Shown here piece after piece: positions 20,135-37,951 of a DNA stretch of 64,000 nucleotides. This stretch comes from Candidatus Latescibacterota bacterium (GTDB lineage Bacteria; Latescibacterota; UBA2968; UBA8231). Where the stretch lies: the NCBI GenBank assembly GCA_965219385.1, contig CBDCNM010000001.1, positions 298,631 through 362,630 of the forward strand. Direction: 5' to 3'. The position numbers were made by a program, and so were the translations under genes. Below the pieces are notes generated by a model that saw nothing but the letters and a program-made list of their open reading frames with translations, ran no database searches and had not been told where the DNA came from. The stretch's first letter is position 1; the number at the start of each line of letters is the position of its first letter.

Positions 20135-21112
20135 ATGCCCATAACCGATGCAATCCACAAGGCGGACCGGCTCGAAGAGATCAAAGTACTGTTCCTGCGC
20201 CGGCCCGAAGGCATGGGGACCAAGGAAATCGCAAGGCTGTTGCGCGTGAGTCAGCGGACGGCCCGGCGCTACGTGCTGGAGTTGTCGGAGAAAGGGCGGC
20301 TGCCGGTGTACCGGGAGGGCCGGGTCTGGAAGCTGGTGGAGGGCGGGCAAATCGACCTGCGTCGTATCCAGTTGAACCTAGACGAGGCCCTCGCGCTTTA
20401 TTTGGCGGCGCGGATGCTGTCGGCCTATAGCGACAAGCACAATCCGCACGTGGTCGCGTCCCTGCTCAAGCTGGCCTCGGCCTTGCCGGAGGCCATTGGG
20501 GCGCACATTGAGCGCACGGCAGAGGCGGTTTCGCAAAGGCGGCTGGCGCCGGAGTATCTGAAAGTCTTGGAAGGTCTGACCCGGGCCTGGGCCGGCCGGC
20601 GGCAGGTGCGGCTCAGCTATCGCGATCCCGTCTCCGGGGAGCGCTCGGAGCGCCGGTTCGATCCCTTTTTCATCGAGCCGTCCTTTGTGGGCTATGCCTG
20701 CTATGTGCTCGGTTTCGATCACTTTCGCTAGGCGATCCGCATCTTCAAGGTCGAGCGCTTGGAGCGGGTCGAGGTGCTGGACTCCAGCTACGAGATGCCG
20801 CCGGATTTTGACCCCTACGACTACCTGAAGTACGCCTGGGGGATCATGGGCGGCGACGAGGTGGTGGAGGTGAAATTGCGGTTTTCCGAGAAGGTGGCCT
20901 ATCGGGTGCGGGAATCGGACTGGCCGGGCGTGGTGGCCCGGGAGGAAGGCAAAGACGGGCGGTGTACGCTGACTTTTTCGGTCAACCACGTTTTGGAAAT
21001 GAAGCCCTGGATCAGAGGATGGGGGCCGGATTGCGAGGTGCTGGCCCCGGAGGGCTTGCGGGCGGAAATTGCCGCAGAGATGAAGGCGGCAGGGGCGGTG
21101 TATGAAGGATGA
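20135..21112 (+). pseudogene. HTH-WYL-WCX transcriptional regulator with one in-frame TAG at 20729-20731
   Basis: HTH (TKEIARLLRVSQRTARRY); WYL region YACYVLGFDHFR*AIRIFKVERLE continues in frame into a WCX-like region (EMKPWIRGWGPDCEVLAPEGLR). Confidence 0.85.
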
Positions 21113-21724: not shown

Positions 21725-23986
21725 ATGAACTATTACGCCCACACAGCCGAAACGGCTACTGGAGAATGCGATACGAATAAATCGCGTTGGCAATTGCTTT
21801 CCACCCACCTGTGCAATGTCGCGGAACGGGCCGAACAATTCGCTGCTCCCTGCGGGTTGGCAGATGAAGCACGCCTTGCCGGTTTACTACATGACCTCGG
21901 AAAGTACGGGAAACGCTTCCAGCAGCGCCTTGAAAATCCTTCCATCCGCGGAATTAATCATTGGGTACAGGGTGCTTACGCCGCCTTTCTAAAGAGGAAT
22001 ATTCGTTTACCGTTCGCCATTGACGGGCACCACACAGGAATGCCTGCCTTCACATGTGATGAGTTCAAGCGCTCGCTAAAAAATTCGATGAAGGATTTTC
22101 ATGTGGGTAACGGTGTCGTGTTGGAAACCGGTCATGAAGAATCGGTGAATGAGTTGCTTGTTCGCGCCAAAAACGATGCCATTTCGCTTGGCTCATTTCT
22201 AGCGACGGATGAAATGTCGTTCGCCTCCGCACTACGAACGCGCATGTTGTTCAGTTGTCTGGTGGATGCGGATTTTCTGGACACGGAAAATCACTTCGAT
22301 TCCGAACGGGCCAAATCGCGGAGTGTTCCATCGCTTTCCGAGGAAGCGGCCTTCAAAATTGTCATGAAATTTCTCCACGGCCTTTCTACAGATGGGCAAG
22401 TCAACCAAGCACGACAACAACTACTGACGGACTGTCTTGCGGCGGCGGACAAACAACCCGGACTGTTTTCCCTTACCGCGCCGACCGGTAGCGGCAAGAC
22501 GCTCGCGTCGCTGGCCTTCGCGCTGAAGCACTGTTGTCGGCATAACGCCAGTTTGCCTGCCACCTCCCATGATCGCTTTCGGCGCGTCATCGTCGTCATT
22601 CCCTTTACCAGCATTATCGAACAGACCGCCAAAGTCTTTCGCGACCTCTTCAAACCGGTCTTTGGCCCAGACTACGTGCTCGAACACCACAGCGCCGTTG
22701 CATGGGGAGAATCAGGTTCCGACCTTGGCCGGGATGCGGAAGATGCCTGGATTCGCCGGGCACGTCTGGCGGCAGAAAATTGGGCGTCTCCCCTCGTCGT
22801 CACCACTTCCGTGCAGTTCTTTGAAAGCCTCTTCGCGCACAGACCGTCCCGCTGCCGTAAGCTCCACAATATCGCCCGCTCGGTGGTCATTTTCGATGAA
22901 GTTCAGACTCTGCCGACATGTTTGGTGCCTTCCCTCCTTTCGGCGGTGAACTGCCTCACCCACGATTACGGTGTTACGGCCGTCTTCTGCACCGCCACTC
23001 AGCCTGCGTTCGGAACTGCGGCGAAGGCGATTGATGACGGCTGGCATCCTCGGGAAATTTCAAGCCGACCTGATGCAATGGCTGAAACACTCAAGCGAAC
23101 CAACATTACCATCCGTTGCGACGAGGATTCCCCGGCTGACTGGCAGGAGCTTGCCAGCGAAATCAGCCAGCACAACTGCGTCCTTTGTGTCGTCAACACA
23201 CGTGCTCAAGCTGCCGAGCTGTTCCAATTACTGCCCGAGGCGGGACGCTTCCACCTTTCAGCGGCCATGTGTGCGGCGCATCGCTCGGATAAGCTCGCGG
23301 TCATTCGCCAACGGCTTGAAGAGGACAAAACCTGCCGGCTCATCTCGACCCAACTCATTGAAGCAGGAGTGGACGTGGATTTCCCCATCGCCTATCGCGC
23401 CCGCGGCCCGTTGGACTCCATCATCCAGACCGCTGGCCGCTGCAATCGCGAAGGCCACTTGCCCGACCCCGGTCCTGTTACCGTATTCACACCGCCTTTG
23501 GGCGGCATGCCGCGTGGTGCTTACAAAACCGCTACCCAGGAAACCGAATCGTTCCTCGCCGAATTCCCGGATGTGCCTCTGCACCAGCCGGAAACCTATC
23601 GCAGCTATTTCGCGCGACTTTACGCAACGCTCGGCCCCGATTCGGCAAATGATGATCCTGCCTACTCCGCCAGCAAGAATTTCGATTTTCCCGCTGCCGC
23701 CAAAGCCTGCCAACTGATCGGCGATGAGACGCGATCCGTCCTCGTACCATACGGCCATAGCAGAGAACTCATCGAAACCATCCGTCATCAACAGCATCTT
23801 ACCGCTGACCTTGCCCGCCGGTGCCAGCGTTTCACAATCAATCTTTACGAGTCGGAATTTCAGAAGTCCCGTAGCACTGGTGTCATAACTCCGCTGCTCA
23901 AGGACGAATCCATGTTTTTCTGGAGTTCCGGCTATGACGACCAACTTGGCATCTGCAATTACGAAGCTGAACATTTCGTTCTCTGA
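21725..23986 (+). CDS. cas3: CRISPR-associated HD nuclease/helicase Cas3
   Basis: YYAHT, LLHDLGK, SCLVDADFLDT; APTGSGKT, FDEVQ, TATQ, STQLIEAGVDVDF, QTAGRCNR. Confidence 0.96.
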   Translation: MNYYAHTAETATGECDTNKSRWQLLSTHLCNVAERAEQFAAPCGLADEARLAGLLHDLGKYGKRFQQRLENPSIRGINHWVQGAYAAFLKRNIRLPFAIDGHHTGMPAFTCDEFKRSLKNSMKDFHVGNGVVLETGHEESVNELLVRAKNDAISLGSFLATDEMSFASALRTRMLFSCLVDADFLDTENHFDSERAKSRSVPSLSEEAAFKIVMKFLHGLSTDGQVNQARQQLLTDCLAAADKQPGLFSLTAPTGSGKTLASLAFALKHCCRHNASLPATSHDRFRRVIVVIPFTSIIEQTAKVFRDLFKPVFGPDYVLEHHSAVAWGESGSDLGRDAEDAWIRRARLAAENWASPLVVTTSVQFFESLFAHRPSRCRKLHNIARSVVIFDEVQTLPTCLVPSLLSAVNCLTHDYGVTAVFCTATQPAFGTAAKAIDDGWHPREISSRPDAMAETLKRTNITIRCDEDSPADWQELASEISQHNCVLCVVNTRAQAAELFQLLPEAGRFHLSAAMCAAHRSDKLAVIRQRLEEDKTCRLISTQLIEAGVDVDFPIAYRARGPLDSIIQTAGRCNREGHLPDPGPVTVFTPPLGGMPRGAYKTATQETESFLAEFPDVPLHQPETYRSYFARLYATLGPDSANDDPAYSASKNFDFPAAAKACQLIGDETRSVLVPYGHSRELIETIRHQQHLTADLARRCQRFTINLYESEFQKSRSTGVITPLLKDESMFFWSSGYDDQLGICNYEAEHFVL

Positions 23987-23992
23987 CCATCT

Positions 23993-24031
23993 AAAAAAAT
24001 AGAAGCCAAACGACGTAAGTCATTTGGCTTC
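23993..24031 (-). terminator. Intrinsic terminator closing the antisense crRNA-like transcript
   Basis: Stem 24002-24010/24023-24031 (extended by gac/gtc) followed on the minus strand by TATTTTTTT. Confidence 0.7.
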
Positions 24032-24088
24032 AAATAGATACGAAACAATCAATGTTTCAATCCGCACCCAGACAGGTGATTTCGAGAC
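23993..24088 (-). ncRNA. Putative crRNA-like regulatory RNA: degenerate repeat + 22-nt guide + terminator
   Basis: Minus strand GTCTCGAAATCACCTGTCTGGGTGCGGATTGAAAC (24088-24054), guide ATTGATTGTTTCGTATCTATTT (24053-24032), then GAAGCCAAA/TTTGGCTTC hairpin and T-run; guide matches 24152-24170. Confidence 0.75.
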
Positions 24089-24118
24089 CTCAGAATAAGA
24101 AACTCTTACAGAGGGTCC

Positions 24119-24147
24119 TTGACAAGCGTTGTGGAAGCATTTATATT
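24119..24147 (+). promoter_or_regulatory. Near-consensus sigma70 promoter for the orphan ORF and cas5-cas8-cas7
   Basis: TTGACA (24119-24124)-N17-TATATT (24142-24147). Confidence 0.8.
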
Positions 24148-24195
24148 TGCTATTGAATGTTTTGTATCTAATAACCATTTCTAATATAGGATTGA

Positions 24196-24483
24196 ATGAC
24201 CATGAAAGCAACAAAAATACTCGATAGCATTCGGTACCATGTCTTTCCGCCTTTGGAACACTGGCGGGTAATAAAACGGCGTCCTAGAGTGCATCCCTAC
24301 GATGATATGCCACTATCAATTCCATCATTAGTATGGTTGCACCTCCTCGCGGACTCGCCGGAAGAAGCTGACAAAGCTGTTGCAATGGTCGTAGCATACG
24401 GAATAGCTGAATTCCAAAACCCGAATAGGGTGAACTCACAGCATGTCGCTGTCTTTAAAACCTTGCCCTTTTCCCTAAACTGA
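24196..24483 (+). CDS. Small orphan protein (93-95 aa) immediately upstream of cas5c
   Basis: Follows the promoter and an AGGA RBS; stop is 2 nt before the cas5 ATG; lower GC than the cas genes; no recognised motif. Confidence 0.5.
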   Translation: MTMKATKILDSIRYHVFPPLEHWRVIKRRPRVHPYDDMPLSIPSLVWLHLLADSPEEADKAVAMVVAYGIAEFQNPNRVNSQHVAVFKTLPFSLN

Positions 24484-24485
24484 TT

Positions 24486-25208
24486 ATGCACACTGAACGA
24501 ATCCATCTCCGTGTCTGGGGCGATCTGGCCTGTTTCACACGCCCGGAAATGAAAGTCGAACGGATGAGCTATCCCGTACCCACGCCCTCGGCTGCCCGGG
24601 GCATCCTCGAAGCGATTCTCTACAAGCCGCAATTCCGTTGGCACATCCACCGCATCGCCGTTCGCCTCCCCATCAAGTTCCTCAGTTTCCGCCGCAATGA
24701 AGTAAAATCCGTCGCCAACTCCCGCAAGCCCGAACCCATCTTGGCCGAGGATGATCGCACGCAACGCAACACGCTTGCCCTCCGCGACGTGGATTACGTC
24801 ATCGAAGCCAGCCTGGAACTCAACCGCTTGGCCAATCAGCCCCGTCAAAAGCCACTCGCTCCCGATGAACCCCAAGGCGACGATAATCTTAGTAAATACT
24901 ATGGGATGTTCCGACGCCGGGTCGAGAAGGGCCAATGCTTCACCCAGCCTTGTTTTGGTTGCCGTGAATTCCCCGCCAACTTCGAGTTGGCTCGGCCGAG
25001 CGACATGGCCGCGCCGCCCGACGCCAATGTGGACACAGATTTGGGACATATCCTCTACGATGTGTTCGATCTCGACATCCCGGCGGACTGGCAGCCCGGC
25101 AAGGTCGAAAAGCCGGAACCTGTCAGTAACTTTTTCCAAGCCCGTCTCGAAAACGGCATCGTCAATGTGCCCGACTGGCGTGACATTAAGGCCAGCCTTG
25201 AAGCCTGA
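24486..25208 (+). CDS. cas5c: Type I-C Cas5c (Cas5d)
   Basis: WGDLACFTRPEMKVERMSYPVPTPSAARGILEAI, RRNEV, GQCFTQPCFGCREF. Confidence 0.96.
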   Translation: MHTERIHLRVWGDLACFTRPEMKVERMSYPVPTPSAARGILEAILYKPQFRWHIHRIAVRLPIKFLSFRRNEVKSVANSRKPEPILAEDDRTQRNTLALRDVDYVIEASLELNRLANQPRQKPLAPDEPQGDDNLSKYYGMFRRRVEKGQCFTQPCFGCREFPANFELARPSDMAAPPDANVDTDLGHILYDVFDLDIPADWQPGKVEKPEPVSNFFQARLENGIVNVPDWRDIKASLEA

Positions 25209-25226
25209 ATCAACTGGGAAGAAACC

Positions 25227-26966
25227 ATGATGCTGCAAGCCCTCATCGAATACGCCGAACGCGAGGGGCTCGGCGATGCCGACTTTCACGAAGCGTCTGT
25301 CCGCTGGCTGGTCCCTTTGGACGCCGCCGGCAATCTCGCAGGCGGCCCCATCGAACTGCTGGACAAGCCTGATGCGAAAAAGCCCAAACCGCAAACGCTC
25401 ACCCGTCCGTTCATTGAACAAAAGGAACTCACAGTTGCTTCGCGCCCGCGTGCCTTCTTCCTTTGCGACACGCTGGAGCGTGCGGTCAACTATCCCGACC
25501 CCAAAAAGCCCGAACGAGCCGAACGGCGCGAAGGTTCCCACGCCTATTTCAAGCAATTGCTTGAGGCGGCCGTGGGGGAATGCCCCAACGACGGTCCAAT
25601 GGCCCAGGCGACTCTGGCCTTTCTGAACCAGCCGGACATGCTCGAAAAACTTCACGCATCACTGACGGAACAAAAAGCGAAGCCGAACGACAACATCACT
25701 TTCCGGATCTCCGGCCATAGGCTGCTTCAAGCGGAGGAACTCAAACAATTCTGGCGCAGACGCCGCGCCGCAGATCGGCCACAAGCTGCGGGCAGGAAAC
25801 GCCTCTGTCTGGCGACTGGCGAATTGACGGAGCCGGTTTTAACCACGGAGAAAATCAAGGGTGTACCCGGCGGCCTTGCCGTGGGAACCAACCTGATTTC
25901 GTTCGACAAGGCTTCGTTCACTTCTTTTGGTCTTCAGCAGGGTGAAAACGCCTCCATCTCCGCTGCCGCTGAGTTGAAAATTCGCAGCGCGTTGAACGAT
26001 CTCATCCAGCACGGCCTTTGGCAGAACGGAATCGTTCACCTTCACTGGACCCGCGAGAAGGATGACCCCGACCCGTTTGGCCTAGTTGAGACTGCCGACG
26101 AACAGGGTGTTCGCAACCTGCTTGAGGCACCACGCACCGGACAATCCCAACATGTGGACGCCCGGAAGTATTACGCCATGAGTCTCTCGGGCAACGGTGG
26201 TCGCATCATCGTCCGCGACTGGCTCGAATCCACTGTTCCCGAAGTTGAGCAGAACGTGCGGCAATGGTTTGAAGACCTCGCCATCGTTCGCCCGGAAGGC
26301 GATTTCGTCTCCACTGATTTCAAGCTCGGCTATCTCTTGCACGGTCTCGTTCGCGACAAACTCGACGAGTTGGCTCCACAGATTCCCACGCAGTTTTTGT
26401 ATGCCGCACTGCGCGACGCGCCCTTGCCTTTGCCGGCTTTGACCGCGGCGCTGCGGCGGCAGCAAATCGAAACCGACAACAAAACCAACCCGGCGCGCTT
26501 GGCCCTTATCAAGGCTTGCCTCCTGCGTCAGGATCGTTTCAATCAACCAAAGGGAAGGAACAACATGACCGAATCGTTAAATACTGAATCCACAGACCCC
26601 GCCTATCTCTGCGGGAGACTGTTCTCGGTCTTTGACCGTCTCCAATACCTCGCCCTCAGCGGTGTCAACGCCGGGGTTGTCGAGCGTTTCTATGCCAGTG
26701 CTAGCACCACGCCTGCCCTGGTGATGGGGCGACTCTTTCGCAACGCGCAATTCCACTTGGCCAAAGTCAGCGGTGGTGCGGCGGAAAACGTGCGCAAGGA
26801 CTTCGAAGTCATCAGCATCCAACTGGGCGACCATTTCCCGCCCAGCCTCGACCTCGAAGGGCAGGGCCGCTTCGCCCTCGGCTATTACCACCAAAAAGCC
26901 GAATACCGACGACTCGCCGCCGAGCGCAAGGAACAAGCCACCAACGCTGAACCCGCTACGGCATAA
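25227..26966 (+). CDS. cas8c: Type I-C Cas8c (Csd1)
   Basis: MMLQALIEYA start, LISFDKASFTSFG, LSGNGGRI, AYLCGRLF, QGRFALGYYHQK. Confidence 0.94.
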   Translation: MMLQALIEYAEREGLGDADFHEASVRWLVPLDAAGNLAGGPIELLDKPDAKKPKPQTLTRPFIEQKELTVASRPRAFFLCDTLERAVNYPDPKKPERAERREGSHAYFKQLLEAAVGECPNDGPMAQATLAFLNQPDMLEKLHASLTEQKAKPNDNITFRISGHRLLQAEELKQFWRRRRAADRPQAAGRKRLCLATGELTEPVLTTEKIKGVPGGLAVGTNLISFDKASFTSFGLQQGENASISAAAELKIRSALNDLIQHGLWQNGIVHLHWTREKDDPDPFGLVETADEQGVRNLLEAPRTGQSQHVDARKYYAMSLSGNGGRIIVRDWLESTVPEVEQNVRQWFEDLAIVRPEGDFVSTDFKLGYLLHGLVRDKLDELAPQIPTQFLYAALRDAPLPLPALTAALRRQQIETDNKTNPARLALIKACLLRQDRFNQPKGRNNMTESLNTESTDPAYLCGRLFSVFDRLQYLALSGVNAGVVERFYASASTTPALVMGRLFRNAQFHLAKVSGGAAENVRKDFEVISIQLGDHFPPSLDLEGQGRFALGYYHQKAEYRRLAAERKEQATNAEPATA

Positions 26967-27035
26967 CCATCAACCCAGTCTCAAATTGCGTCTCCTCTTC
27001 TTCAGTAAGAGGGACAAAAAGAAAGTGAAAGCACT

Positions 27036-27902
27036 ATGAATTCGATCCAAAGCCGATACGATTTCGTCTATCTCTTCGACTGCAAAGACGGCAACCCGAA
27101 CGGCGATCCCGATGCCGCCAACGCTCCACGTGTGGACCCGCAAGACATGCACGGTCTCGTGTCTGACGTGTGCCTGAAACGCAAAATCCGCAACTACGTT
27201 CTGGAAGCCAGCGGTGGCGCGGAACCGTTCGATATCTTCGTCCGCCAGGGCGCGATTCTGAATGAGTCCATCGCCCAAGCCCACAAAGATCTCGGCCACG
27301 AGATGGACGGCAAAGCCAAGAAGGCCACCCGCGACCAAGTCAAAGATGCCCGTGCCAAAATGTGCCATCGCTACTACGATGTAAGGACGTTCGGCGCGGT
27401 GATGTCCACCGGGACCAACGCCGGACAAGTGCGCGGCCCTGTGCAACTGAGCTTCAGCCGCAGCCTTGATCCCATCCTGCCAATGGACATTTCCATTACC
27501 CGCATGGCCGTCACCGAGGCTAAGGAACTCGACGCCCCGAACCAGACGATGGGCCGTAAAAACCTCATTCCCTACGGCCTGTACCGCTGCCACGGCTTCA
27601 TTTCCGCCAACCTCGCACACGACACTGGATTCAGCGACGACGACCTCAACCTTTTTTGGCAGGCGTTGCAGAATATGTTTGACCTTGACCGTTCCGCCTC
27701 GCGTGGTACCATGGCTCCGCAAAAGCTCATCGTTTTCAAACATCAATCCGCCCTCGGCAATGCGCCCGCACACAAGTTGTTCGAACGCATAACGGTTACC
27801 CGAAAGGAGTCCGTCCAGGCAGCCCGCCAATTCTCCGACTACGAAATTTCCACCAACTGGAATGATCTGCCCGAAAATGTGGAACTGGTCGAGATGCTGT
27901 GA
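27036..27902 (+). CDS. cas7c: Type I-C Cas7c (Csd2)
   Basis: GNPNGDPDAANAPR, SDVCLKRKIRNYV, DVRTFGAVM, VRGPVQ, TMGRK. Confidence 0.96.
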   Translation: MNSIQSRYDFVYLFDCKDGNPNGDPDAANAPRVDPQDMHGLVSDVCLKRKIRNYVLEASGGAEPFDIFVRQGAILNESIAQAHKDLGHEMDGKAKKATRDQVKDARAKMCHRYYDVRTFGAVMSTGTNAGQVRGPVQLSFSRSLDPILPMDISITRMAVTEAKELDAPNQTMGRKNLIPYGLYRCHGFISANLAHDTGFSDDDLNLFWQALQNMFDLDRSASRGTMAPQKLIVFKHQSALGNAPAHKLFERITVTRKESVQAARQFSDYEISTNWNDLPENVELVEML

Positions 27903-28540
27903 CTAACGCCGCTCCATTTCCCAATCTGCCCGATCCCATCCCCCTCTCGCTCCTCAACGACTACCTCTATTGCCAACGCCGGGCGGCATTGAAGGCGATT
28001 GAAGGGTGGCGCGGGACCAACGAGCACACCGTGGTCGGCGATGGTGTCCACGAGCAGGCCGACGTCTCCGGCTACGAAACCGTCAGGGGCGTGACTCTGT
28101 TGCGCGCCCTGCCCGTCTGGTCGGACCGGCTCGGGCTCAACGGCAAGTGCGACATCGTCGAGCGTCATCCCGACGGCTCGTTGATCCCGGTCGAGTTCAA
28201 AAAGGGCAAACGTCGCAAGTTCGACAACGACGACGCTCAGCTTTGCGCCCAAGCGTTGTGCCTCGAAGAGATGTTCGGGCGGGACATTCCCAAGGGGGCC
28301 ATCTTCCACGCTAAGAGTAAGCGCCGCCGAGAGGTGGAATTTACCGAAGATTTGCGCCGCCTCACCGAACAGGCCATCGAAGCCATGCACCGGCTGATCG
28401 AAGAGGAAGCGGTCCCCCAAGCCGTCCATAAGCCCCAATGTTCCGAGTGCTCGCTTTTTGACCATTGCCTTCCCGAAATCACCAGCGTTCCGCCTATGCT
28501 GGCGCGGGCCTATCGGGAAGTGTTCGATACCACCGCCTAG
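27899..28540 (+). CDS. cas4: Cas4 exonuclease
   Basis: YLYCQRR, GKCDIVE, PVEFKKG, QLCAQALCLEEM, CSECSLFDHC Fe-S cysteines. Confidence 0.95.
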   Translation: MTNAAPFPNLPDPIPLSLLNDYLYCQRRAALKAIEGWRGTNEHTVVGDGVHEQADVSGYETVRGVTLLRALPVWSDRLGLNGKCDIVERHPDGSLIPVEFKKGKRRKFDNDDAQLCAQALCLEEMFGRDIPKGAIFHAKSKRRREVEFTEDLRRLTEQAIEAMHRLIEEEAVPQAVHKPQCSECSLFDHCLPEITSVPPMLARAYREVFDTTA

Positions 28541-28568: not shown

Positions 28569-28606
28569 GTCTCGCCTTGCTTCGGTAAGGGGGAACGGAT
28601 TGAAAC
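28569..28606 (+). CRISPR. Solitary degenerate CRISPR repeat abutting the cas1 start codon
   Basis: GTCTCGCCTTGCTTCGGTAAGGGGGAACGGATTGAAAC immediately followed by the cas1 ATG. Confidence 0.85.
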
Positions 28607-29668
28607 ATGGCCATTGTCCAAAACACTCTTTATCTGACGACGCCGAAAACCGTAGTGCTCAGGGATCACTTGACGCTCCGGGTCGAGATCGAAAAGCAAA
28701 CCCGCCTGACCGTGCCCATTCACCATTTGGAAAGCATCTGCGCCTTTGGGCAGGTCGTGGTTACGCCGCCGGCCATGGCCTTGTGCTGGGATCATCAGGT
28801 GGCGGTGCATTACCACACCGAGAACGGCTATTTGCTGGCGCAGGTCTTGGGAAGCGGAGATACCCGCTACTTGCTGCGCCGGGCTCAGTACGCGGCGGCG
28901 GACAGCCCACAGGATGCGGCTTGCATTGCCCGGCAATTCGTCGCTGGAAAGCTGCAAAATGCACGATCCAATCTCTTGCGGTCCAGGCGGGAAGTCGATG
29001 GCGATTCGGATCGGGGGAAGCTGGCGGATGCGGCTGATGAACTGGCCCGGCTGATCCGCCAACTCGGCGATGCCCCGCCCGTTGCCCCGGGTTGCGGGCT
29101 TCGGGAGGCGCTCGACCCGATCAGGGGCTTGGAAGGTCTGGGTGCCAAGGTGTATTTCTCGGTGTTCCAGTACATGCTCAAACAACAGCGAGAAGATTTC
29201 AGGTTTGTAACCCGCACGCGACGTCCGCCCCGGGATCGGATAAACTGCCTGCTTTCCTTTATATATGCCTTGGTCCGCCACGATTGTTTGGCCGCGTTGA
29301 CGACCGCCGGGCTGGACCCTTATGTCGGCTGGCTTCATGCGACGCGCGCCGGGAGGCCGGCTTGCGCTCTGGACCTGATGGAAGAGTTCCGGCCCTGTCT
29401 GGCGGAACGGCTGGCGTTGACCCTCGTCAATCGCCGCCAGATCGAATCCAAGCACTTTCGCGAACGAGAGGGCGGCGCCGTAGAATTCACCGACCAGGGC
29501 AGGAAAGAGGTCATCCAGGCTTGGCAACAGCGCAAGCAAACAGAAGTAAAACACGCCCTGTTTGAGCAAAATATCCATTTGGGACAAGTGTTCAGCATTC
29601 AAGCCAAGTTATTGGCCCGCAAGCTCCGCGGCGATGTCCCTGACTATATTCCCTTCATTCCGAAATAA
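28607..29668 (+). CDS. cas1: Type I-C Cas1
   Basis: NTLYLTT, RGLEGLGAKVYF, RRPPRDRINCLLSFIY, GLDPYVGWLH, ALDLMEEFRP. Confidence 0.96.
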   Translation: MAIVQNTLYLTTPKTVVLRDHLTLRVEIEKQTRLTVPIHHLESICAFGQVVVTPPAMALCWDHQVAVHYHTENGYLLAQVLGSGDTRYLLRRAQYAAADSPQDAACIARQFVAGKLQNARSNLLRSRREVDGDSDRGKLADAADELARLIRQLGDAPPVAPGCGLREALDPIRGLEGLGAKVYFSVFQYMLKQQREDFRFVTRTRRPPRDRINCLLSFIYALVRHDCLAALTTAGLDPYVGWLHATRAGRPACALDLMEEFRPCLAERLALTLVNRRQIESKHFREREGGAVEFTDQGRKEVIQAWQQRKQTEVKHALFEQNIHLGQVFSIQAKLLARKLRGDVPDYIPFIPK

Positions 29669-29958
29669 TGTTTATCCTGATCGCGTACGACGTTTCGACT
29701 GCGGACAAATCTGGGCAAAAACGACTGCGCCGAGTGGCAAGAGCCTGTGAGGATTACGGCGTCCGGGTGCAAAAATCGCTTTTTGAGTGTCAGGTGGGAA
29801 AAACCGAATGGGCGGCACTCAGAAATCGTCTGCTGAAGGAAATCGATTCCAAGCAGGATTCTCTCAGGGTCTATCATTTGGGCGAAGACACTAGAGACAA
29901 GACGGAGCATCACGGGTTCAACGAGCCCGTGGACTTGAATGCACCACTGATCTTATAG
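29668..29958 (+). CDS. cas2: Cas2
   Basis: ILIAYDV, RLRRVARACEDYGVRVQKSLFEC, DSLRVY. Confidence 0.96.
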   Translation: MFILIAYDVSTADKSGQKRLRRVARACEDYGVRVQKSLFECQVGKTEWAALRNRLLKEIDSKQDSLRVYHLGEDTRDKTEHHGFNEPVDLNAPLIL

Positions 29959-30138: not shown

Positions 30139-33100
30139 GTCTCCCCTCGCTTCGGTGAGGGGAGCGGATTGAAACAGGTTGGCAGCTTCGGACATTTTGG
30201 CAGCGGACAAGTCTCCCCTCGCTTCGGTGAGGGGAGCGGATTGAAACCTATCCCGCATTTTTCGATCAACCCCAGCGATGAAAGTCTCCCCTCGCTTCGG
30301 TGAGGGGAGCGGATTGAAACGGATCACTCCGGTGGACTGGATTGGTGATGTCGTCGGTCTCCCCTCGCTTCGGTGAGGGGAGCGGATTGAAACATCCTCT
30401 TCATCCTCATCCCGTTGCTCATCCCGGTCTCCCCTCGCTTCGGTGAGGGGAGCGGATTGAAACTTGGCGGGTTGCGTCTTTTTCGCCGCCCGCGACTGTC
30501 TCCCCTCGCTTCGGTGAGGGGAGCGGATTGAAACCTCACGGTCCCGGGTACGGCAATTCCGCCGATACAGTCTCCCCTCGCTTCGGTGAGGGGAGCGGAT
30601 TGAAACACTGGTGCTATGGTAGCTGGTACCGGGGCTCAGGTGGTCTCCCCTCGCTTCGGTGAGGGGAGCGGATTGAAACGGTATATTATCCCAGACAGGC
30701 ACAAAGGAGGCCGTCTCCCCTCGCTTCGGTGAGGGGAGCGGATTGAAACGTGGTTGGGCGCGCCGGATTATGGAGCAGTATCGGGTCTCCCCTCGCTTCG
30801 GTGAGGGGAGCGGATTGAAACACCAACGCCACCAACGATAAAAGCGGACGGCCATCGTCTCCCCTCGCTTCGGTGAGGGGAGCGGATTGAAACCTGGTGC
30901 ACCAGGCATTTAACATCCAACGAGGAGTGTCTCCCCTCGCTTCGGTGAGGGGAGCGGATTGAAACATGAGACCTGTTGGCTCTGGCCCTCGGATTGCTTA
31001 GTCTCCCCTCGCTTCGGTGAGGGGAGCGGATTGAAACATCCGTATGTTAGTAATCAGAAATTGAAATTGAAGGTCTCCCCTCGCTTCGGTGAGGGGAGCG
31101 GATTGAAACGTGGTTGGGCGCGCCGGATTATGGAGCAGTATCGGGTCTCCCCTCGCTTCGGTGAGGGGAGCGGATTGAAACCAACACCGGCGTCTGGAAA
31201 AAGACCTGCGGACTGGGTCTCCCCTCGCTTCGGTGAGGGGAGCGGATTGAAACGCTGCTGAGTATTTCAGGTACCCGATCCTCCTCCTGTCTCCCCTCGC
31301 TTCGGTGAGGGGAGCGGATTGAAACTCCTGCCGTGCGCACATCAATTCACTAGCCCACTTGTCTCCCCTCGCTTCGGTGAGGGGAGCGGATTGAAACCCT
31401 TTCCGGCCTATCCCCTTAGAATGTGCCGCTTGTGTCTCCCCTCGCTTCGGTGAGGGGAGCGGATTGAAACCTCACCCTAACCGGAGGAACCGAATGACCG
31501 CACCAGTCTCCCCTCGCTTCGGTGAGGGGAGCGGATTGAAACCTCTACCTCTTCTGGGCGATCTTCACCGGCCTAGTGGTCTCCCCTCGCTTCGGTGAGG
31601 GGAGCGGATTGAAACGCAGTATTCGCACATCCAGGGATCGGGTGCCTCCGTCTCCCCTCGCTTCGGTGAGGGGAGCGGATTGAAACGAAATGGGGCATCC
31701 GCAAGGCCCGTGGGCAAAAAAGTCTCCCCTCGCTTCGGTGAGGGGAGCGGATTGAAACAAGCTTTCTAAAGCCCCAAGGCATCCCCCGCTACGTCTCCCC
31801 TCGCTTCGGTGAGGGGAGCGGATTGAAACACTGCCGGTACTGCGGCGCTCGCCTCAGCACCCCGGTCTCCCCTCGCTTCGGTGAGGGGAGCGGATTGAAA
31901 CCCGTCTGCGAAGACGAACCATGAAATTTAACCCACGTCTCCCCTCGCTTCGGTGAGGGGAGCGGATTGAAACGCTGGCGAGGGGCAAAATCGAGCGTCC
32001 GCGCAGGAGGTCTCCCCTCGCTTCGGTGAGGGGAGCGGATTGAAACATAGCTGGCCGTCCAGGTGCCGGCGGCGGAAAAGTGTCTCCCCTCGCTTCGGTG
32101 AGGGGAGCGGATTGAAACCCAACCCTCGGCCAAGCTGAGGATCCGGTCGCTGTGTCTCCCCTCGCTTCGGTGAGGGGAGCGGATTGAAACTGCTTGACCA
32201 CCCCGAACCTGTACTGCGTCCACTGGGTCTCCCCTCGCTTCGGTGAGGGGAGCGGATTGAAACAACTGTGCGATGCCGGTGGTAGCCGTGACGGCCAGGT
32301 CTCCCCTCGCTTCGGTGAGGGGAGCGGATTGAAACAGCAGCGGGAAGGGCCTCTAAAGAGGAATACAAAAGTCTCCCCTCGCTTCGGTGAGGGGAGCGGA
32401 TTGAAACCCGGCCGTCCCTCTGCTTTTAGGTGCTGTTGAGGCGTCTCCCCTCGCTTCGGTGAGGGGAGCGGATTGAAACGGGATGGATAGCACACCCTGG
32501 CATACTCAGCATGAGTCTCCCCTCGCTTCGGTGAGGGGAGCGGATTGAAACCCGAAATTGAGAAGCGCGCGAGAATAACGCAGGTTGTCTCCCCTCGCTT
32601 CGGTGAGGGGAGCGGATTGAAACAACCCATGGCAGTTACCATAGACAGCATCCCTGTAGTCTCCCCTCGCTTCGGTGAGGGGAGCGGATTGAAACTTATC
32701 CCAGGGCGATTAATCCTCTATGGGTCGAGGTCTCCCCTCGCTTCGGTGAGGGGAGCGGATTGAAACCATCCTTGTGTGCTCGGAAACCTGATACGCCTTT
32801 CAGGTCTCCCCTCGCTTCGGTGAGGGGAGCGGATTGAAACACAGATACCGGGTATTTTTCCTTCTCCTCCGCCATGGTCTCCCCTCGCTTCGGTGAGGGG
32901 AGCGGATTGAAACAGGTTGGCAGGTAGCGGACATTTTGGCAGCAAGACGTCTCCCCTCGCTTCGGTGAGGGGAGCGGATTGAAACCCAACCCTCGGCCAA
33001 GCTGAGGATCCGGTCGCTGTGTCTCCCCTCGCTTCGGTGAGGGGAGCGGATTGAAACTTTTTACATGTGGTGCACAGTCCCGGCTTGTACTTGTCTCCCC

Positions 33101-36100
33101 TCGCTTCGGTGAGGGGAGCGGATTGAAACACCCGATAGCTGTCGAGGGCTGAAGCCCTCCTGATGAGGTCTCCCCTCGCTTCGGTGAGGGGAGCGGATTG
33201 AAACGCTGCTGAGTATTTCAGGTACCCGCCTCCTCCTGGGTCTCCCCTCGCTTCGGTGAGGGGAGCGGATTGAAACCAAGCCCGCTCAATCACGTACACT
33301 CAGGCATGGGCGTCTCCCCTCGCTTCGGTGAGGGGAGCGGATTGAAACCAGTGCTCTCGGATTTCCCCCGATGACATCACTTGTCTCCCCTCGCTTCGGT
33401 GAGGGGAGCGGATTGAAACTGATATTGCCAATAATGTCTCCCTCGTACCGGCAAGTCTCCCCTCGCTTCGGTGAGGGGAGCGGATTGAAACAAGACGTCG
33501 GCGTCGGCCCCTTGCCCATCGGAACAGTCTCCCCTCGCTTCGGTGAGGGGAGCGGATTGAAACCGATGTTGCGGAAGGGGAAAACCTCGACGAGATTAGT
33601 CTCCCCTCGCTTCGGTGAGGGGAGCGGATTGAAACCGATGTTGCGGAAGGGGAAAACCTCGACGAGATTAGTCTCCCCTCGCTTCGGTGAGGGGAGCGGA
33701 TTGAAACGACTACACTGATGAGGAGCTGATCGAGCTCATCGTCTCCCCTCGCTTCGGTGAGGGGAGCGGATTGAAACATTTTACGGCCGGACCAAACCTG
33801 AGCGCCACTTCGTCTCCCCTCGCTTCGGTGAGGGGAGCGGATTGAAACCAGAGGGTGATGATCCTGGTTCATACCAACTCCTACGTCTCCCCTCGCTTCG
33901 GTGAGGGGAGCGGATTGAAACCTGTGGTGGCATGGCACGGACTGGACGACATCTATGTCTCCCCTCGCTTCGGTGAGGGGAGCGGATTGAAACGTGATGT
34001 CGTCTACGGGGCACGACAGGGAACTGTGTCTCCCCTCGCTTCGGTGAGGGGAGCGGATTGAAACGTAAAAGCTTCGCCAATTCGTGACGAGCTTGGCGAG
34101 TCTCCCCTCGCTTCGGTGAGGGGAGCGGATTGAAACGACTACACTGATGAGGAGCTGATCGAGCTCATCGTCTCCCCTCGCTTCGGTGAGGGGAGCGGAT
34201 TGAAACATTTTACGGCCGGACCAAACCTGAGCGCCACTTCGTCTCCCCTCGCTTCGGTGAGGGGAGCGGATTGAAACCAGAGGGTGATGATCCTGGTTCA
34301 TACCAACTCCTACGTCTCCCCTCGCTTCGGTGAGGGGAGCGGATTGAAACCTGTGGTGGCATGGCACGGACTGGACGACATCTATGTCTCCCCTCGCTTC
34401 GGTGAGGGGAGCGGATTGAAACGTGATGTCGTCTACGGGGCACGACAGGGAACTGTGTCTCCCCTCGCTTCGGTGAGGGGAGCGGATTGAAACGTAAAAG
34501 CTTCGCCAATTCGTGACGAGCTTGGCGAGTCTCCCCTCGCTTCGGTGAGGGGAGCGGATTGAAACGACTACACTGATGAGGAGCTGATCGAGCTCATCGT
34601 CTCCCCTCGCTTCGGTGAGGGGAGCGGATTGAAACATTTTACGGCCGGACCAAACCTGAGCGCCACTTCGTCTCCCCTCGCTTCGGTGAGGGGAGCGGAT
34701 TGAAACCAGAGGGTGATGATCCTGGTTCATACCAACTCCTACGTCTCCCCTCGCTTCGGTGAGGGGAGCGGATTGAAACCTGTGGTGGCATGGCACGGAC
34801 TGGACGACATCTATGTCTCCCCTCGCTTCGGTGAGGGGAGCGGATTGAAACGTGATGTCGTCTACGGGGCACGACAGGGAACTGTGTCTCCCCTCGCTTC
34901 GGTGAGGGGAGCGGATTGAAACGTAAAAGCTTCGCCAATTCGTGACGAGCTTGGCGAGTCTCCCCTCGCTTCGGTGAGGGGAGCGGATTGAAACAAAGCT
35001 ACTGAGCTTGATATACTGATTGAGAAAAGTCTCCCCTCGCTTCGGTGAGGGGAGCGGATTGAAACCTCAACGACGCGGTTGGCTTTGCCCTCGTCCTCGA
35101 TGAAGGAGTCTCCCCTCGCTTCGGTGAGGGGAGCGGATTGAAACTTGCTACTTCTGATTGTTGCTGACATTGCTACATGTCTCCCCTCGCTTCGGTGAGG
35201 GGAGCGGATTGAAACTACCTACTGCCGATGCCCATGCGTGTATGCCTATCCGGTCTCCCCTCGCTTCGGTGAGGGGAGCGGATTGAAACGGGTTCAACTC
35301 GACCACCTGGCCCGGGGGCAGGGACGTCTCCCCTCGCTTCGGTGAGGGGAGCGGATTGAAACGGAGACGACGGGGACGATGGAGAGGACGGGCAGGATGT
35401 CTCCCCTCGCTTCGGTGAGGGGAGCGGATTGAAACAGCACCAAGTGTCCTCAACGAAAGATACACTCGAAGTCTCCCCTCGCTTCGGTGAGGGGAGCGGA
35501 TTGAAACAACGCAGCAGGACACGTAGTGCACTCTCCTTGCTGGTCTCCCCTCGCTTCGGTGAGGGGAGCGGATTGAAACACCGTCGTCCCGGACATAGAG
35601 TCGCTGATTGGTCTGTCTCCCCTCGCTTCGGTGAGGGGAGCGGATTGAAACCCGATAGTGAGAAGCGCGCGAGAATAACGCGAAGTGTCTCCCCTCGCTT
35701 CGGTGAGGGGAGCGGATTGAAACGGCTACCATACCGACGCTCGACAGCTTTTATGCCGGTCTCCCCTCGCTTCGGTGAGGGGAGCGGATTGAAACACTGA
35801 TGAGTCCTGGTAGTGGCCAGGTCGAAACCGTCTCCCCTCGCTTCGGTGAGGGGAGCGGATTGAAACAGAAAAAAAAGAAGGACCACCCCCCCACAAGATT
35901 GGTCTCCCCTCGCTTCGGTGAGGGGAGCGGATTGAAACGACTTGCTGTGGCCGACAGAGGAAGGGCCCTCCTGTCTCCCCTCGCTTCGGTGAGGGGAGCG
36001 GATTGAAACAAGGCATCCAGTAGCGTAACGATCTGGGCTGCGGGTCTCCCCTCGCTTCGGTGAGGGGAGCGGATTGAAACAAATACTTCCCGAGGGTGCA

Positions 36101-37951
36101 CGATGCAAGCCGATGTCTCCCCTCGCTTCGGTGAGGGGAGCGGATTGAAACGGCAACCGGCGCTTAGAGGCGCTCGACGCGCTGGGTCTCCCCTCGCTTC
36201 GGTGAGGGGAGCGGATTGAAACGAGAATGCGCGGTTACTTGAGGAGCTCGCGCGCGGGTCTCCCCTCGCTTCGGTGAGGGGAGCGGATTGAAACTCGAAT
36301 TTCGGGCCGGCCGACGCGGGCTGCCGTTCGGTCTCCCCTCGCTTCGGTGAGGGGAGCGGATTGAAACAGTTATGGGCTTCTGGGCAGCCGGCCTGATTTC
36401 CGGGTCTCCCCTCGCTTCGGTGAGGGGAGCGGATTGAAACGTCGTCGAGCCGTCCGTTGTTCGGTGTTGCGGTAAGTCTCCCCTCGCTTCGGTGAGGGGA
36501 GCGGATTGAAACCAGCAGCGCCGTCCGTTCGCCCTCTACCGTGGTAAGTCTCCCCTCGCTTCGGTGAGGGGAGCGGATTGAAACCACCACAACAACGGCC
36601 AGCCCGAAACGCAGTGCTGAGTCTCCCCTCGCTTCGGTGAGGGGAGCGGATTGAAACTTGCGCTCCCCGGGTACGGCAATTCCGCCTATACCAGTCTCCC
36701 CTCGCTTCGGTGAGGGGAGCGGATTGAAACGATTACGGGCATCCGCAAGGCCCATGGGCAGAAAGTCTCCCCTCGCTTCGGTGAGGGGAGCGGATTGAAA
36801 CAAGGCATCCAGTAGCGTAACGATCTGGGCTGCGGGTCTCCCCTCGCTTCGGTGAGGGGAGCGGATTGAAACGGCAACCGGCGCTTAGAGGCGCTCGACG
36901 CGCTGGGTCTCCCCTCGCTTCGGTGAGGGGAGCGGATTGAAACGAGAATGCGCGGTTACTTGAGGAGCTCGCGCGCGGGTCTCCCCTCGCTTCGGTGAGG
37001 GGAGCGGATTGAAACACCACGCGCTCGGAGACCTCCACTTCTTTTCTGGCCGTCTCCCCTCGCTTCGGTGAGGGGAGCGGATTGAAACACCACGCGCTCG
37101 GAGACCTCCACTTCTTTTCTGGCCGTCTCCCCTCGCTTCGGTGAGGGGAGCGGATTGAAACATATTTCAATCCCTGGCAACTTCAGCTTTACCACCGTCT
37201 CCCCTCGCTTCGGTGAGGGGAGCGGATTGAAACCCGAATCAGTGGGCGGTAGAGGTCACGCTACCGCGTCTCCCCTCGCTTCGGTGAGGGGAGCGGATTG
37301 AAACATTGAAAATTGAAGCTCGTCACCCGCTGGCCGCCGGTCTCCCCTCGCTTCGGTGAGGGGAGCGGATTGAAACGAGTGAGCGGGGTAATGCGCGCGC
37401 GTTGCTCGTCGGTCTCCCCTCGCTTCGGTGAGGGGAGCGGATTGAAACATTGAAAATTGAAGCTCGTCACCCGCTGGCCGCCGGTCTCCCCTCGCTTCGG
37501 TGAGGGGAGCGGATTGAAACGAGTGAGCGGGGTAATGCGCGCGCGTTGCTCGTCGGTCTCCCCTCGCTTCGGTGAGGGGAGCGGATTGAAACGACCAGAT
37601 TACCGATAGCAAGGTGGTCGCTATCCACGTCTCCCCTCGCTTCGGTGAGGGGAGCGGATTGAAACCGGATTCGGGCCCGCTTCTCGGTCGGGATGTGGAG
37701 GTCTCCCCTCGCTTCGGTGAGGGGAGCGGATTGAAACTTGGAAATTGAAGCTCGTCACCCGCTGGCCGCCGGTCTCCCCTCGCTTCGGTGAGGGGAGCGG
37801 ATTGAAACGTCGAAGCCGGATCGATCAACCAGTGACGGCAGGGTCTCCCCTCGCTTCGGTGAGGGGAGCGGATTGAAACCGGTACCGCGAGCTGGTGTTC
37901 CAGCACCATCCCGAGTCTCCCCTCGCTTCGGTGAGGGGAGCGGATTGAAAC
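30139..37951 (+). CRISPR. Type I-C CRISPR array: 109 copies of 37-nt GTCTCCCCTCGCTTCGGTGAGGGGAGCGGATTGAAAC, 108 spacers (mostly 33-38 nt, one 42 nt)
   Basis: Manual count; hairpin CTCCCCTCGC-TTCG-GTGAGGGGAG and ATTGAAAC end; degenerate remnant tgctttggtgaggggaatgg right after the last repeat. Confidence 0.98.

Follow-up and report, generated by a model that had tools for sequence, protein, structure and literature searches.

Between cas3 and cas5c of a type I-C CRISPR–Cas locus, a minus-strand unit ends in the same 11 nucleotides as the repeats of the locus' own array and is followed by a short guide, which raises the question of whether the locus encodes an RNA that directs Cascade to its own promoter. 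The locus is complete within the window (the whole 64,000-nucleotide stretch of DNA analysed here), and comprises cas3 (21725..23986, plus strand), cas5c (24486-25208, plus), cas8c (25227-26966, plus), cas7 (27036-27902, plus), cas4 (27899-28540), cas1 (28607-29668), cas2 (29668-29958) and a plus-strand array of 109 identical 37-nt repeats with 108 spacers (30139..37951); there is no cas6. Pfam calls (Cas3, Cas5d, Csd1 (Cas8c), Cas7 (Csd2), Cas4, Cas1 and Cas2) have E-values from 1e-15 to 1e-110. The cas3–cas5c gap measures 499 nt. The first-pass annotation had read the element in this gap as a CreR-type crRNA mimic aimed at the promoter of the Cascade operon, a reading supported by conservation, by compensatory changes in the hairpin and by co-variation of guide and target; we conclude with good confidence that the element is a CreR-type, crRNA-like autorepressor RNA of this type I-C system.

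Anatomy of the element and its target

The arrangement first described from the letters, with a repeat-like unit, a guide and a terminator on the minus strand between cas3 and cas5, is borne out letter for letter. The 35-nt repeat-like unit (psiR, GTCTCGAAATCACCTGTCTGGGTGCGGATTGAAAC, 24088..24054) holds a 5-bp hairpin (CACCU/GGGUG, loop GUCU), shorter than the 10-bp hairpin of the array repeat, directly 5′ of an 11-nt handle (CGGATTGAAAC, 24064..24054) that is identical to the end of the array repeat, as had been claimed. Cas5c is predicted to cut between 24065 and 24064. The handle occurs 111 times in the window against 0.03 expected: 109 times in the array, once in the element and once before cas1. 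The array is the source of the handle and of competing crRNAs. A guide of 22 nt (ATTGATTGTTTCGTATCTATTT, 24053..24032) and an intrinsic terminator (24031..23993) follow, again as proposed, the latter formed by a 13-pair stem (24031..24002) and the T-run TATTTTTTT (24001..23993); cas3 ends 6 nt before this T-run. No second repeat-like unit or handle lies 3′ of the guide, where the terminator hairpin stands instead. The fold of the element has a z-score of -4.73, and an Rfam scan of the element returned no family reaching its gathering score, with CRISPR-DR9 matching psiR at a sub-threshold 19.1 bits against a gathering score of 45.

A consensus scan of the minus strand found no sigma-70 promoter for the small RNA and no convincing -35 was seen, with a -10-like hexamer, TATTCT (24092..24097, minus), as a candidate promoter element upstream of psiR. 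Six of the nine element-bearing loci described below have a TAnnnT hexamer 32-35 nt upstream of the handle, which may be the -10 of the small RNA. A search for RNA sequencing runs returned no record. An overlapping 64-aa minus-strand ORF (24020-24214) was rejected as a real gene, with relatives carrying 1-nt indels there.

The promoter of the orf95-cas5-cas8c-cas7 operon (24119..24147, plus) consists of TTGACA (24119-24124), a 17-nt spacing and TATATT (24142-24147), and agrees with the consensus at 11 of 12 positions. Guide nucleotides 1-19 match the plus strand just behind it (ATTGAATGTTTTGTATCTA, 24152..24170; the protospacer on the non-target strand) at 17 of 19 positions, the mismatches falling at 6 and 12 only. 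This target begins 4 nt past the -10 and overlaps the expected transcription start, and is flanked at the PAM position by GCT (24149..24151, plus); match, spacing and flank all agree with what the first-pass annotation had reported. Behind the promoter lie a 95-aa ORF (orf95, 24196..24483, plus), the first gene downstream, and then the Cascade genes cas5c, cas8c and cas7 (together 24486..27902, plus). Searching both strands of the 5.81-Mb genome, we found that the promoter site is the sole site with one to three mismatches to guide nucleotides 1-19; the seven further sites have exactly four mismatches each. At the target the guide reads in the sense of the plus strand and would pair with the template DNA strand; because it thereby shares the sense of the operon mRNA, antisense RNA–RNA pairing with cas mRNA is ruled out.

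Conservation and co-variation in related loci

Searching with Cas5c, we collected 80 loci from genomes, 80 from metagenomes and 15 from taxonomic relatives. In this last set the type I-C systems are all distant (Cas5 identity at most 56%), and close relatives of the locus (Cas5 65-91% identical) come from metagenome-assembled genomes labelled as several different phyla; therefore the locus appears to move horizontally. The branch of type I-C to which the window belongs has 37-nt repeats. It was sampled as 25 distinct loci whose Cas5 is at least 65% identical and whose upstream region is long enough, after removal of four duplicates and two contigs with short upstream regions; the loci compared are related, and counts among them are not independent events. 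The whole element (hairpin, handle, guide of about 22 nt and terminator) is present in nine of the 25, namely the window, L016, L017, L018, L020, L023, L096, L098 and L105, and all nine have a cas3–cas5 gap of at least 187 nt. In the remaining 16, cas3 abuts cas5 (gap at most 79 nt) and there is no element; a look upstream of cas3 in these gapless relatives for repeat-like units gave weak single-mismatch sites only, without hairpins.

Alignment of the nine sequences shows what is held constant. Nine of the 11 handle positions and three positions in the stem are invariant, as are a few columns scattered elsewhere, and the 5′ part of the repeat-like unit varies freely. The psiR hairpin is paired in 93.3% of alignment cells, compared with 29-62% in slid controls; three of its five pairs have changed on both sides, and none of 500 shuffles matches its covariation score. 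The terminator helix is paired in 82.8% of cells, a value without a separate control, with six of 13 pairs changed on both sides. The look at homologous loci proposed at the outset thus finds the element kept in eight other distinct related loci, with compensatory changes in both hairpin and terminator.

Guide and target also change together, as the first-pass annotation had suggested should be sought in relatives. The site matched by the guide lies on the plus strand in all nine loci, 53-65 nt upstream of the 5′ end of the unit. TTGACA is kept in eight (by eye, L105 differs), with the target about 26-33 nt downstream of the box in those eight; -10-like boxes, also picked by eye, would lie about 4-9 nt upstream of the target in eight of the nine, and are weak in L020, L023 and L105. 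At least three groups of very different guides can be told apart, and each target tracks its own guide. Across eight distinct clade pairs, positions 1-17 without 6 and 12 match in 115 of 120 cells; the same pairs match in 3/8 cases at position 6, 4/8 at position 12 (7/16 jointly) and 1/8 at position 18, and beyond position 19 agreement is random. The pairing of the window's guide reaches position 19, longer than that of its relatives. The ninth locus, L096 (with its duplicate L097), matches at guide positions 1-12 except 6, and again at 13-22 after one extra target base. This extra base (target at L096:7343-7365, and in L097) follows position 12, and pairing would continue there only through a 1-nt bulge at a flipped-out position.

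Our first co-variation scoring ignored positions 6, 12 and 18, and it was repeated with all 17 positions counted. The 170 loci contain 38 solitary handle-like sites upstream of cas5; scored in this way, 20 of them have a match of 13/17 or better close by, a threshold passed by 3.2% of 760 shuffled guides. With about half of such sites accompanied by a matching target, the design is common in type I-C. The concentration of mismatches at the two positions first named for the window persists under this scoring, which does not favour them: branch loci have five mismatches at position 6, four at 12 and none or one at every other, and distant loci have eight at position 6 and six at 12. In type I Cascade every sixth guide base is flipped out, as has also been noted for type I-C crRNA-like RNAs (10.1101/2024.12.27.630466; here and below, statements about cited work refer to those portions of its text that were available). 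As judged from the aligned guides and targets, the pile-up at 6 and 12 is a signature of type I Cascade.

These patterns bear on the reading that the element is a functionless leftover of the array or of a rearrangement, its promoter match arising by chance or as a duplicated inverted repeat such as a protein operator. The second repeat-like unit before cas1 does show that repeats have moved within the locus, which is what a leftover would lead one to expect; against this, compensatory changes maintain both hairpins, the handle and stem base alone are invariant, and guides and targets differ completely between groups and are still matched. Mismatches at 6, 12 and 18 are not expected from a protein operator or a plain duplication, and the element occurs exactly where there is an intergenic promoter (nine with, 16 without). 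We consider a leftover very improbable.

Solitary repeats are also found elsewhere. About 30 copies are scattered in same-class genomes (28-62 nt, 78-95% identity to the window array; for example G026:C10:264222-264263, G098:C52:26405-26452 and G056:C1:3965964-3966007). Outside the window, contig C2 of G000 carries a solitary unit (about 1023320-1023357, plus) composed of CTCCCC-TACT-GGGGAG and CGGATTGAAAC, just downstream, by eye, of the 3′ end of an apparent tyrosine recombinase gene. A search for its target found no genome site at 14/15 or better, with genome-wide noise at 13/15; the unit may be an RNA anti-CRISPR of a mobile element, or else a remnant.

Target flank and the Cas8c loop

TTC is the known PAM of type I-C systems, and the GCT flank of the window's target had been entered as a caveat from the start. 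That the flank is not TTC stands; its weight is softened by the relatives, whose targets are flanked by GCC (L016, L018, L023, L096, L098 and L105) or GTC (L017 and L020), and by a Cas8c loop that lacks the SGS/GNG-type motif. Position -1 is C in all eight other distinct clade loci and T in the window only. The same design recurs, at a stricter score, in seven distant type I-C loci (Cas5 43-47% identical), with TTC flanks in six and TTT in one (L137); an eighth, L072, scores 12/15 and has a TTC flank. The solitary units near cas5 in distant type I-C loci (L037, L072, L080, L091, L092, L137, L138 and L173) occur in several orientations, with guides that skip 6 and 12 and TTC- or TTT-flanked matches nearby.

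Structural work offers one way to interpret the flank. Cas8c of N. lactamica reads T-3 and T-2 through an S70-G71-S72 loop, D. vulgaris uses G-N72-G, and the authors call this loop motif a predictor of type I-C PAM specificity (10.1101/2023.08.05.552134, 10.1101/2022.06.15.496202). Aligned to the N. lactamica chain with phmmer, the window Cas8c places TVASRPRA opposite GRS-GSKS. In a MAFFT alignment, the eight distant loci with TTC or TTT targets have loops of the R-(S/T)-(S/G) type, and the eight branch Cas8c proteins that accompany the element have TVASRPR (five), TIASRPR (one), TSATQPR (one) and NQGTKS (one). At the low identity of the loop region, this absence of an SGS/GNG-type motif is at most suggestive; Cas8c of the taxonomic relatives is too divergent for PAM inference. 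The consistent non-TTC flank and the divergent loop together point to a type I-C branch with a different PAM, which would matter for spacer-based matching of hosts and viruses and for type I-C editing tools.

Deriving the PAM from array protospacers, as had been advised, yielded no protospacer in the genome, phage records, plasmid records, 132 same-class genomes or viral contigs. Window spacers gave only partial 17-20-nt matches to their own genome, reaching 18-25 of 34-36 positions on extension; 504 clade spacers searched against the collected loci and the genome hit duplicate arrays only; the whole array had no match in phage or plasmid records and, in the 132 same-class genomes, met other arrays and solitary repeats only. 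The array of L019 had no target outside arrays in four genomes, and six single-spacer stretches (22 or 29 nt each) had no match in viral contigs.

The lone T at position -1 admits another reading, in which the lineage is a real CreR lineage weakened or inactive in the window genome through a flank mutation from GCC or GTC to GCT. The C shared by all eight other distinct loci speaks for it, and T at this position may weaken binding. However, guide, handle, hairpin and terminator are intact in the window, pairing extends to position 19 and so beyond that of the relatives, the N. lactamica type I-C system tolerates T or C at -1 (10.1101/2023.08.05.552134), and the distant locus L137 has a TTT flank. 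Weakening or loss of function in the window seems to us unlikely, and we return to the reading of an autorepressor.

Proposed autorepression, orf95 and relation to known systems

The circuit that we propose would begin with a minus-strand transcript of about 100 nt, starting just upstream of the repeat-like hairpin and stopping at the terminator. Cas5c would cut the base of the hairpin to leave the 11-nt handle, and Cascade (Cas5c, Cas8c, Cas7 and Cas11) would assemble on the 22-nt guide. Despite the GCT flank, the loaded complex would bind where transcription from the orf95-cas5-cas8c-cas7 promoter starts, its guide pairing with the template strand at positions 1-5, 7-11 and 13-19 while 6 and 12 stay flipped out; the resulting short R-loop would block RNA polymerase and should not license Cas3. 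Cascade would in this way repress its own synthesis, and the promoter would open once crRNAs titrate Cascade away or anti-CRISPRs block it. Such sensing of crRNA load or of anti-CRISPRs is proposed by analogy with published CreR work in other subtypes.

CreR RNAs are already known, as are crRNA-like RNAs tested in type I-C (10.1101/2024.12.27.630466). Autorepression by CreR is published for types I-B, I-E and V-A, and the same report lists manually found type I-C cases (its Figure S7) that, in its available text, are untried (10.1101/2023.03.10.532045). The window's element shares with these CreRs a degenerate repeat that keeps the handle, a short pseudo-spacer that partly matches the effector cas promoter and an expected outcome of Cascade autorepression without cleavage (10.1101/2023.03.10.532045). 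It differs in that the tested type I CreRs have two repeat-like units, whereas the window has one and a terminator, like the V-A CreR, and lacks the second unit 3′ of the guide that defines the type I mini-array (psiR1-psiS-psiR2); published CreR targets also have a canonical PAM, and the window's has GCT (10.1101/2023.03.10.532045).

Closer in subtype are the type I-C crRNA-like RNAs made from solitary repeats, whose supervised cargo is Nezha, Gabija and CRISIS. They have an 11-nt handle and a 3′ hairpin, mismatch their targets at 6 and 12, and repress promoters 4.8- to 60-fold (10.1101/2024.12.27.630466). The likeness extends to a single unit cut by Cas5c to an 11-nt handle (a cut that is predicted in the window), to the 3′ hairpin, to pairing over about 16 nt that skips 6 and 12, and to cargo between cas3 and cas5c (10.1101/2024.12.27.630466). 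The CRISIS-type unit, however, lies on the coding strand directly before cas5c, and that of the window is divergent and adjoins cas3; the CRISIS-type target precedes the cargo promoter, 37-46 bp upstream of the start site, and the window's overlaps the start site; the CRISIS-type PAM is TTC or TTA, and the window's flank GCT (10.1101/2024.12.27.630466). None of the three CRISIS-type features (a coding-strand unit before cas5c, a target upstream of the cargo promoter, a TTC or TTA flank) is thus found in the window and, unlike in CRISIS-type cargo supervision, the cas operon itself stands behind the target (10.1101/2024.12.27.630466). Published type I-C tests cover cargo promoters and not the cas operon itself; judged by comparison of loci, the element would add a comparatively validated case of the Cascade autorepression design in type I-C.

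Phage-encoded mimics provide a third comparison. Viral Cracr RNAs also consist of a single repeat-like unit, a 17-21-nt guide and a terminator, and some target type I-C cas promoters, but the window's element is chromosomal and lies inside its own cas locus (10.1101/2024.10.29.618823). One scan of viral contigs found no viral mimic of the window's handle and seed.

The first gene past the target, orf95, deserves separate attention. Because it ends 2 nt before cas5, the two share one promoter, and orf95 is a candidate new CRISPR-linked gene under the same control as the Cascade genes. Homologues with 21-74% identity stand at the same position in six distinct loci (L016, L096/L097, L023/L102, L105-L107 and L020), and the invariant residues include R28, R31, H33, P34, G69 and I70. 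The family is rare, with 40 cluster representatives among 1.84 billion proteins; many of these are about 160-170 aa long and match at their C terminus, and may be gene calls that begin too far upstream, as in L020 and L023. A word-based homologue search gave three close relatives only, and a protein-atlas search gave no usable match. The predicted fold is beta-alpha-beta-beta-alpha-beta (mean pLDDT 76.5). Searches of Pfam, NCBIfam and PADLOC returned no family, toxin and defence families included, Foldseek found no match in the PDB at E of 0.001 or below, and no structural neighbour was convincing (best VIA-align Z = 3.0). A search of the main texts of papers found none on orf95.

Its position invites the view that the circuit mainly controls orf95 as cargo, which would be a toxin or defence factor set free once Cascade is disabled, as in CrePA, with its protein toxin repressed by Cascade, or CRISIS, with defence genes supervised by CRISPR. 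Small cargo in the cas3–Cascade gap under crRNA-like control is indeed published (CreP, 103 aa, 10.1101/2024.01.05.574328; type I-C cargo, 10.1101/2024.12.27.630466), and the rarity of the family and its constant place directly behind the target are in keeping with such a role. The likeness to CrePA/CreTA lies in a small ORF in the cas3–Cascade gap that follows a site to which a crRNA-like guide matches over about 19 nt, position 12 being mismatched; CrePA, however, belongs to type I-F, has two repeat-like units and uses a CC PAM, and CreP is a toxin with a KilAC domain, whereas orf95 has no recognisable domain (10.1101/2024.01.05.574328). Against a circuit built mainly around cargo, three of the nine element loci (L017, L018 and L098) lack orf95 and have the same guide–promoter design directly before cas5, orf95 shares its promoter with cas5 at a distance of 2 nt, and it matches no toxin or defence family or fold. 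We regard this role as possible, though on balance doubtful; it is compatible with autorepression of the cas genes, which we continue to prefer as the main function.

More speculative is a wider scheme in which the PAM of the 37-nt-repeat branch has shifted from TTC to about 5′-G(C/T)C or YGYC, read by the Cas8c loop without SGS/GNG (TVASRPR in the window), and orf95 is a new CRISPR-supervised cargo, a toxin or an anti-anti-CRISPR factor, released with Cascade on inhibition. We put this forward tentatively, as an idea that may well prove wrong. Were the PAM shift true, the flanks of conserved CreR targets would be a built-in read-out of PAM specificity. The same search of main texts found no paper on a GYC-type type I-C PAM; what may be new in the present locus is orf95 and the branch-specific non-TTC flank with its divergent Cas8c loop.

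Several further features of the locus were recorded. The second repeat copy outside the array (GTCTCGCCTTGCTTCGGTAAGGGGGAACGGATTGAAAC, 28570-28606, plus) is nearly intact, and its 3′ end abuts the ATG of cas1 exactly; its stem carries paired changes (CCCTC/GAGGG to CCTT/AAGG), and in the closest relatives, L016 and L096, TTGAAAC-ATG alone survives. If Cas5c cuts the operon mRNA at this repeat, cas1-cas2 would be separated from the Cascade genes. Within the array, a block of six repeat-spacer units is duplicated at 33527-35065 (plus; period 429 nt, about 3.6 copies, 94% identity), and 15 spacers are present two or three times each. About 1 kb upstream of cas3, an HTH-WYL protein (20135-20731, plus) matches the PADLOC WYL profile (E 8.6e-20) and the N-terminal part of a Cas3c profile (E 7.4e-40), and could be a second, protein-based regulator of the locus. 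Near the start of the window, a tandem array with a 66-nt period (813-1807, plus; about 15 copies, 81% matches) resembles the coding region of a repeat protein, possibly one with leucine-rich repeats.
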